DNA of 64,000 nt from a virus, in the IMG/VR virus record IMGVR_UViG_3300025010_000048, positions 8,331 to 72,330 of that record. One strand, 5' to 3'. The position numbers were made by a program, and so were the translations under genes. Below are positions 30,908-31,067 of this stretch, piece by piece. Each line of letters opens with the position of its first letter. Within the stretch, counting starts at the first letter, position 1. The notes under the pieces were generated by a model that saw only the letters and a list, made by a program, of their open reading frames with translations, did no database searches and was not told the DNA's origin.

Positions 30908-30979
30908 ACATATAGGGATTGGCAATGATTGCACATTAAAGAAACATACATACAAACTACCAAACAGGAGGCACGCCAA

Positions 30980-31003
30980 ATGGTCAAATGTCGAAGCGAC
31001 TGA
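30980..31003 (+). CDS. 7-aa micropeptide MVKCRSD
   Basis: AGGAGG RBS; ATG GTC AAA TGT CGA AGC GAC TGA. Confidence 0.7.
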   Translation: MVKCRSD

Positions 31004-31043
31004 AACCTACCGGTTGGTTAAAAAAATAACCGGAGGTGAGAAA

Positions 31044-31067
31044 GTGATTAAGTGTAGGAGTGATTGA
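31044..31067 (+). CDS. 7-aa micropeptide MIKCRSD
   Basis: GGAGGTG RBS; GTG ATT AAG TGT AGG AGT GAT TGA. Confidence 0.7.
   Translation: MIKCRSD

Follow-up and report, generated by a model that had tools for sequence, protein, structure and literature searches.

Tandem seven-codon genes, possibly leader peptides, at the head of an early transcript of an uncultured temperate phage

The virus record IMGVR_UViG_3300025010_000048 of IMG/VR (72,330 nt, rated complete) carries, within bases 8331-72330, two tandem open reading frames (ORFs) of seven codons each that encode the near-identical peptides MVKCRSD and MIKCRSD. The 64,000-nt stretch between these bases is the DNA analyzed here and is referred to as the window. 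The two frames, designated upstream ORF 1 and upstream ORF 2 (uORF1 and uORF2), are followed by a 15-codon frame (uORF3) and by a gene for a protein resembling Com of phage Mu (com). Comparison of the window with five related metagenome loci (together, the six loci) indicates that uORF1 and uORF2 are very probably translated micro-genes under selection for the peptide that they encode. As for their function, we tentatively favor, with a probability of roughly 0.4, that they are cis-acting leader peptides of the uORF1-uORF2-uORF3-com transcript, linked to translation termination and acting as nascent chains; cis action is the preferred, yet unproven, step of this proposal.

Two near-identical heptapeptide frames in the window

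The original prediction for this locus, made from its nucleotides, described two frames for MVKCRSD and MIKCRSD, each equipped with a Shine-Dalgarno (SD) site, and both were found to be present. The back-translated heptapeptide pattern occurred at exactly two places in the 64-kb window and in 0/100 shuffles. When the whole 72,330-nt record was searched, the same pattern was found twice on the forward strand and never on the reverse strand, and a control pattern gave no hit. We also searched the window for any two SD-preceded micro-ORFs that have the same length, differ by at most one residue, and lie no more than 300 nt apart. This search returned a single pair, uORF1/uORF2, and no pair in 200 block-shuffles. 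Both frames are, as had been claimed, the first cistrons 3' of the TTGACA-17-TATACT promoter at 30879-30907, which matches the consensus at 11 of 12 positions and whose -35 hexamer (TTGACA or TTGACT) was kept in 6/6 loci.

The claim that the DNA of the two copies differs at many positions with a valine-to-isoleucine (V/I) exchange as the only change in the peptide was also borne out. In codons 2-7, uORF1 and uORF2 differ at 7 of 18 bases, and so few residue changes would be expected from seven randomly placed changes with P ~6e-4. An effect of rare codons was considered as well and was rejected, as AGA (0.32) and AGG (0.24) are the most frequent Arg codons of the phage. A literature search, limited in extent, found no description of M-x-[KR]-C-R-S-D micro-genes, and within that limit the system can be called undescribed, as was originally proposed.

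Relatives with the same gene order

Homologous micro-ORFs in syntenic DNA, which the original prediction had proposed to look for, were found in metagenome contigs. The peptide pattern gave nine stretches in these contigs, six of which were syntenic with the window (L008, L009, L011, L012, L014, and L015); L011 and L015 do not differ over the part that they share, leaving five distinct relatives. Three stretches that encode MIKCRWD (L010, L013, and L016; mutually identical in the part shown) were rejected as unrelated DNA with telomere-like repeats. In the collection of viral contigs the peptide pattern gave no stretches, while the looser K-C-R-S-D-stop pattern gave 28 loci, all out of context and none of them (0/28) an SD-preceded micro-ORF, and a pattern for the uORF3/com junction gave one unrelated, high-GC locus. 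Genome contigs yielded two stretches, both unrelated (50% and 66% GC, flanks not shared). A blastn search with bases 30560-31700 gave no match among known phages or known plasmids, and tblastn with the Gp3-like protein gave just two matches in these sets, at 23-24% identity. No loci were returned by a locus search with the AbrB-like protein. The corresponding search with Com returned five distant loci (L003-L007; 48-55% identity), none of which (0/5) has similar micro-ORFs upstream, and an alignment search with Com added just one locus, L020, with merely 110 nt of upstream sequence. In a search of 5.8 billion proteins, the Com clade comprised just six clusters with 77-100% identity, and clusters P0002-P0006 of this clade account for at least 28 contigs.

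The repressor, cro, ribbon-helix-helix (RHH), com, and abrB genes are common to the window and its relatives, and the RHH gene was found in all five of the latter. Relative to the window, protein identities were 38-69% for RHH, 77-89% for com, 78-92% for abrB, and 37-53% for several downstream genes. The plan of the leader was kept in all relatives and consists of the promoter, uORF1, uORF2, the 15-codon uORF3, and com, which starts 53 nt past the start of uORF3. The sequencing runs that contain this DNA are groundwater and sediment metagenomes, with no RNA run among those listed, and the family is a small clade of uncultured groundwater and sediment phages. In L011 (8472-9079) and L015 (584-1191), about 600 nt of extra sequence lie between com and the AbrB-fold gene, an insert that the window does not have.

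Conservation of the peptide versus the nucleotides

Start codon, seven codons, and TGA were kept in 12/12 copies (six loci with two copies each), all of which have an SD-like site, and the family consensus of the peptide is M-[VIA]-[KR]-C-R-S-[DY]. The uORF1 peptide is MVKCRSD in five of the six loci and MIKCRSD in one. The uORF2 peptide is more varied, with MIKCRSD in two loci (from a GTG start in the window), MARCRSD in two, and MVRCRSY and MIRCRSD in one each. The C-terminal residue is Asp in 11 of the 12 copies and Tyr in one. The SD of uORF1 is GGAGG in 6/6 loci, that of uORF2 is GGAGG in four and GGGGG in two, and the stop codon is TGA in all 18 uORFs (uORF1-3, six loci).

Within codons 2-7 of uORF1, five sites vary among the loci; four of these are synonymous, including a first-position CGA/AGA exchange, and one is the V/I change. 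When codons 4-7 were compared across the 12 copies, each third position was found to vary, and the only changes at first or second positions were CGA/AGA and a single D-to-Y substitution. Some synonymous differences between the copies are constant in the six loci (Arg AGA/CGA vs. AGG, and Asp GAC vs. GAT), and the Ser codon is mostly AGC in uORF1 and AGT in uORF2. As these differences have been held across six loci, the copies are old duplicates and not the products of recent conversion. Comparison of the two copies within each relative gave P values of 0.018-0.051, which are not independent of the value of 6e-4 for the window. Among the variants listed from four DNA runs were two synonymous changes, C>A at 30992 (CGA to AGA) and T>C at 31061 (AGT to AGC); these runs may include the source sample and are not independent. 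Mean pairwise identity was 0.91 for uORF1, the highest in the leader, and 0.83 for uORF2, against values of 0.66 and 0.58 in the spacers and of 0.82 at the beginning of com. The spacers exist as two unrelated versions, type-1 and type-2, and L009 is a recombinant with one version of each. The proposal of selection on the heptapeptide is thus supported by five syntenic relatives that keep the start, the seven codons, the stop, and C-R-S-[D/Y].

Two observations concern the sequence around the end of uORF2. Past the uORF2 stop (31068-31082), the differences ACT/ACC, AAA/AAG, GAC/GAT, and CAT/CAC among type-1 loci, including L012 and L014, each affect the third base of a codon in the uORF2 frame, although the numbers are too small to judge by. 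In loci with the type-2 spacer (L008 and L011, and in weakened form L009), an 8-bp hairpin with a GAA loop takes in the stop and the last codons of uORF2; the D-to-Y substitution in L009 breaks one of its pairs.

Annotation does not see genes of this size, and to our knowledge selection for the peptide has been recognized in very few of them, chiefly MccA and several resistance leader peptides. The comparative signal is clean here, with frames that stay constant while the spacers are swapped and the neighboring proteins drift to 37-69% identity, and the system is short enough for a direct test.

Leader peptides acting in cis

The position of the two frames fits a cis role, as they are the first cistrons of the 5' leader and lie upstream of the coupled uORF3-com pair. 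In the mechanism that we propose, ribosomes would load on the A-rich leader at the strong SD sites; both the SD sequences and the A-richness of the spacers are observed features. The nascent M-x-[K/R]-C-R-S-D chain may then slow release at the UGA codon, possibly only with a small molecule or in a particular translational state, and the paused ribosome would cover about the first 12 bases past the stop. According to the folding predictions, covering those bases would free the hairpin-hidden ribosome site of uORF2 in this phage and in two relatives, in which case uORF2 would be translated only after uORF1. Ribosomes retained at the 5' end would, in turn, feed or stabilize the coupled uORF3-com message. 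Stabilization of mRNA by ribosomes at the 5' end is known for Bacillus.

The hairpin over the uORF2 SD (31005-31037; Table 1) has a predicted free energy of -14.4 kcal/mol in the window (z -3.46), and 0/200 shuffles were as stable. In ensembles of the full leader, the probability that the uORF2 SD is unpaired was 0.00 in the window, 0.06 in L014, and 0.25 in L009, compared with 0.49-0.70 in the other three loci. A modelled ribosome footprint on the uORF1 stop raised the accessibility of this SD from 0.00 to 0.44 in the window, from 0.06 to 0.48 in L014, and from 0.25 to 0.44 in L009. The folding and footprint results therefore make a relay from uORF1 to uORF2 plausible in half of the family. 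The original prediction had also considered a leader that controls com and abrB; this idea has only partial structural backing, from the hairpin over the uORF2 SD, which is convincing in 3/6 loci, and a link to uORF3 or com was seen in no locus.

A number of results weigh against the proposed mechanism. The z scores of the hairpin in the relatives were -3.02 (L009), -1.99 (L012), -1.76 (L008), -1.52 (L014), and -0.13 (L011), i.e., the structure is strong in the window and L009, moderate in L012, L008, and L014, and absent in L011, and we consider it convincing in only three of the six loci. The footprint on the uORF1 stop caused no change in L008, L011, and L012, and a footprint on the uORF2 stop left the uORF3 ribosome site unaffected in 6/6 loci. 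No conserved structural route to uORF3 or com was found in the six folded loci. In addition, the whole leader is no more stable than its shuffles (z 0.01), and an Rfam search of the leader gave nothing near threshold. Attenuators do not typically carry the same peptide twice. The known leader peptides of comparable length require a bound drug, and here no gene of the resistance type follows; unlike in leaders of the MsrDL type, the genes downstream encode a Com-like zinc ribbon and a protein of the AbrB fold, neither of them a resistance or metabolic protein. The invariance of TGA in 12/12 copies is weak evidence for a role of the stop codon, because each synonymous site has changed only 0-2 times within either copy. 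The probability of about 0.4 given above for cis action reflects a strong prior for leader peptides, weighed against the missing conserved structure and the duplication of an identical peptide.

Two further features of the leader were considered and set aside. RNAalifold placed long-range pairing between the leader and the start of uORF3 in 4/6 loci but without covariation, and it was not used. Loading of Rho was rejected, as the spacers are A-rich, with C minus G of -1 to +8 per spacer and of -18 to -27 for the whole leader.

Very short cis-acting leader peptides are well known from resistance operons of Firmicutes, with ErmDL, ErmCL, ErmAL1/2, cat-86, and cmlA as examples. ermA has two tandem leader peptides, the short leaders of cat-86 and cmlA have T-D and A-D as their last residues where stalling occurs, and [KR]-C-R resembles the known stall motif K/R-x-K/R. 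The micro-genes share with MsrDL-type resistance leaders a frame of 6-9 codons that lies in a 5' leader behind a strong ribosome site of its own, and conservation of the peptide rather than of the nucleotides. In the micro-genes a hairpin on the next ribosome site begins 2 nt past the stop, but this structure is convincing in only 3/6 loci and none controls uORF3 or com. They also differ from such leaders in that one peptide is present in two copies and in that they belong to an early operon of a temperate phage. MsrDL (MYLIFM) is a 6-residue leader peptide that blocks release at its own stop codon, with an effect that is carried by the peptide and not by the codons and for which the identity of the stop codon matters (PMC10314930). 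If cis action is true, a temperate phage would gate its early operon by means of a nascent-peptide sensor, a kind of device that has been linked to date with antibiotic resistance and with amino-acid operons.

Alternative readings

Nearly as likely as cis action, in our view, is that the product of uORF1 and uORF2 is instead a free, directly translated heptapeptide (a hexapeptide if Met is removed) that acts in trans early in infection as a ligand, an inhibitor, or a mimic of a signal, its target belonging to the host or to the phage, with two genes raising the dose. The seven-codon length and the strong ribosome sites would then serve high-yield, repeated translation. In favor of such a product, both copies keep the peptide whichever spacer version surrounds them, there is no conserved downstream structure, and the phage has other host-signaling genes (Spo0E-like, Spo0A_C, and AbrB-fold). 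Only one unprocessed functional heptapeptide of this kind is known to us, MccA, which is translated directly and is the precursor of microcin C; it needs a modifying enzyme, which counts against a free peptide here. Like mccA, each micro-gene has seven codons, a strong SD, a place among the first cistrons, a likely intrinsic terminator close by, and a length that permits re-translation; unlike MccA, the peptide ends in Asp or Tyr and not in Asn, and its sequence is conserved, whereas MccA sequences are not. No match to MccB (ThiF-like, PF00899) was found in the 72-kb genome, although control genomes gave matches. Arbitrium AimP and the Phr peptides of Rap-Phr systems offer a functional analogy only: their active forms have 5-7 residues with a central basic residue, they steer phage and sporulation decisions, and they are cut from secreted pro-peptides encoded next to a TPR receptor gene. 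The micro-genes differ from these in that the entire frame has seven codons, and no longer motif-bearing frame that could be a pro-peptide was found in the window or its relatives. TPR_12 (PF13424) had no matches in the genome, although a single TPR model was used and divergent receptors could be missed. The original prediction was thus correct that these are not precursors of the arbitrium or Phr kind. Nor was a partner evident elsewhere: of the 25 listed frames with 180 aa or more, 20 were scanned (among them 28327-29130 and 33796-34812), and none gave a Pfam family of the receptor or exporter type. The ribosome site of uORF2, which is fully buried in this phage (unpaired probability 0.00), would also be odd for a copy that serves dosage. 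PMC6495379 gives a range of 2-8 codons for re-translation without leaving the mRNA, into which seven codons fall, with recycle numbers of 71 for the 7-codon mccA vs. 6 for 15 codons, and all MccA precursors that it describes end in Asn. A strong hairpin, likely a terminator, lies shortly downstream on the transcript, as described for mccA in PMC4231749. Taken strictly, as an unprocessed and unmodified hexa- or heptapeptide that is the very first early product and works as an intracellular effector in trans, we consider this reading somewhat less likely. Such an effector could mimic a short peptide signal or inhibit a host regulator of the sporulation and transition-state network, at which the Spo0E-like, Spo0A_C, and AbrB-fold proteins of the phage would be directed as well. 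If this holds, the micro-genes would found a class of phage effectors of their own; theirs would be the first heptapeptide effector that a phage makes by direct translation, and no smaller phage gene would have a role in trans.

Minigenes of the lambda bar type, which would be a ribosome sink or cause peptidyl-tRNA drop-off that ties up tRNAs or peptidyl-tRNA hydrolase and thereby damps host translation, are improbable. The bar frames have 2-3 codons, and their effect is largely independent of the peptide. The micro-genes share with bar and with synthetic toxic minigenes a strong SD, a very short frame, A-rich sequence past the stop, and an early phage transcript, but they have seven codons and a peptide under selection. 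Minigenes of 3-8 codons are described in PMC2490762 as inhibiting translation through accumulation of peptidyl-tRNA, with an effect that declines with the length of the frame. The idea fits poorly, because the effect needs no specific peptide, yet C-R-S-D is kept, because seven codons are long for it, and because AGA and AGG are common and not rare in the phage. We hold it to be still less probable that the two copies represent a nucleic-acid element, DNA or RNA, that is bound at two places 64 nt apart and in which the reading frames are incidental. The copies are indeed direct repeats, with a period of 64 nt, and the core TGY-MGR-AGY-GAY-TGA-A is fixed at 12/17 positions, but the variation sits on third codon positions, and the starts (ATG or GTG), the correctly spaced SD sites, and the stops were kept in 12/12 copies. 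No consistent antisense frame accounts for the conservation either; antisense open stretches change frame between loci, and the copies stand in different relative frames, so that no single antisense frame explains both. Read-through of UGA (as Trp or selenocysteine, or by frameshifting), which would make the heptapeptides the heads of longer products, appears the most far-fetched of these readings. It would agree with a hairpin that starts right past the uORF1 UGA, with an in-frame extension N-L-P-[VI]-[GS]-stop in type-1 loci, with the position of all four variable sites past the uORF2 stop at third positions, and with the single frame shared by uORF2 and uORF3 in type-2 loci, which is broken only by TGA. 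Against it, the extensions are unrelated between the spacer types, the offsets of the uORF frames differ among loci, Rfam gave no SECIS match, and no tRNA gene was found within the 64-kb window. The rest of the probability is assigned to readings outside those listed.

uORF3, com, and the end of the transcript

The stop codon of uORF3 sits between the ribosome site and the ATG of com. The 15-codon length of uORF3 and its 53-nt offset to com were kept in 6/6 loci, with a poorly conserved peptide (identity 0.71, minimum 0.48), and constant length and position without conservation of sequence would fit a purely positional role in coupling to com. In 4/6 loci uORF3 opens with M-[VIA]-V-R-[SGK], faintly like M-V-K-C-R-S, and it may be a decayed third copy of the micro-gene. 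The Zn_ribbon_Com score of the Com protein (Table 1) was taken on a longer, 59-aa frame at 31162-31341. Downstream, the long hairpin and T-run at 31324-31408 likely represent an intrinsic terminator that closes the short uORF1-3/com transcript. The hairpin was kept in the alignment of the relatives, although a simple terminator scan did not list it. It is built from the last com codons, their repeat, and a 3' arm (31296-31412), ahead of the T-run, and a ribosome completing com would be predicted to melt its lower part.

Table 1. Features around the two micro-genes (positions in the window).
Feature	Position	Strand	Remarks
Repressor-like HTH_3 gene, 126 aa	29715-30095	minus	Faces the cro-like gene (first divergent pair)
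cro-like HTH_3 gene, 79 aa	30291-30530	plus	First divergent pair
Bidirectional terminator-like hairpin	30614-30634		Separates the first and second divergent pairs
RHH protein, 55 aa	30648-30815	minus	Divergent from the micro-gene operon
Promoter-like TTGTCA-17-TATAAT of the RHH gene	30857-30885	minus	11/12 matches
Promoter TTGACA-17-TATACT of the micro-gene/com transcript	30879-30907	plus	11/12 matches
Operator-like 14-mer, near-palindrome	30920-30933		Just 3' of the -10, within the transcribed leader; kept in 5/6 loci
SD of uORF1, AGGAGG	30966-30971	plus	8 nt ahead of ATG
uORF1, 7 codons + TGA, MVKCRSD	30980-31003	plus	ATG GTC AAA TGT CGA AGC GAC TGA
Hairpin over the uORF2 SD	31005-31037	plus	5' arm starts 2 nt past the uORF1 stop; 3' arm covers the uORF2 SD
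SD of uORF2, GGAGG	31032-31036	plus	7 nt ahead of GTG
uORF2, 7 codons + TGA, M(GTG)IKCRSD	31044-31067	plus	GTG ATT AAG TGT AGG AGT GAT TGA
SD of uORF3, GGGAGG	31104-31109	plus	8 nt ahead of ATG; unpaired probability 0.90
uORF3, 15 codons + TGA, MVVRSTYITITKLRG	31118-31165	plus	TGA 5 nt ahead of the com ATG
Mu Com-like zinc-ribbon protein, 56 aa	31171-31341	plus	Pfam Zn_ribbon_Com 8.4e-9
Long hairpin + T-run	31324-31408	plus	Hairpin 31324-31393, including the last com codons; -33.5 kcal/mol, z -4.95, 0/200 shuffles as stable
AbrB/SpoVT-fold protein with C-terminal CxxC...CxxC pair	31413-31658	plus	Pfam MazE_antitoxin 2.7e-11; next gene past the terminator

Regulatory layout and genome setting

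The order of elements on the rightward transcript is the 14-mer, the A-rich leader, uORF1, uORF2, uORF3, com, and the T-run hairpin, followed by the AbrB-fold gene. The micro-gene promoter had been placed beside the cI/cro switch. The promoter itself was confirmed, but it is not that of cro; together with the RHH gene it makes up another divergent pair, located one gene rightward of the cI-like/cro-like pair. Its -35 hexamer and that of the opposed RHH promoter (30857-30907) overlap. A scan for promoter-like sites returned 8 in total, vs. 7.5 expected from shuffles; because the total equals the expectation, the assignment of 30879-30907 rests on the quality of the site and its conservation in the relatives. 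The rightward design TTGACA-17-TATACT is common to both divergent regions (30183-30211 and 30857-30907). The RHH gene was matched by the Pfam models RH3_dom (6.7e-4) and RHH_1 (4.3e-3), scores that are weak and all under the curated cut-offs.

The 14-mer just past the -10 is tied by inverted-repeat pairs to copies at 30458-30471 and 30551-30564. These copies, of the type TGCAAT..GSCA, flank the end of the cro-like gene, with the third near the micro-gene -10, and the three are probably binding sites for one of the local repressors.

Further along the rightward operon lie genes for a Spo0E-like protein (37075-37197; 2.3e-13) and for a stand-alone Spo0A_C domain (43910-44203; 6.7e-20). These two genes point to an endospore-forming Firmicute host and to possible interference with its sporulation switch. 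At 19742-22749, a gene resembling IS605 OrfB/TnpB, with a Cas12f1-like TNB domain, adjoins genes for an FtsK/SpoIIIE ATPase and a Replic_Relax protein.

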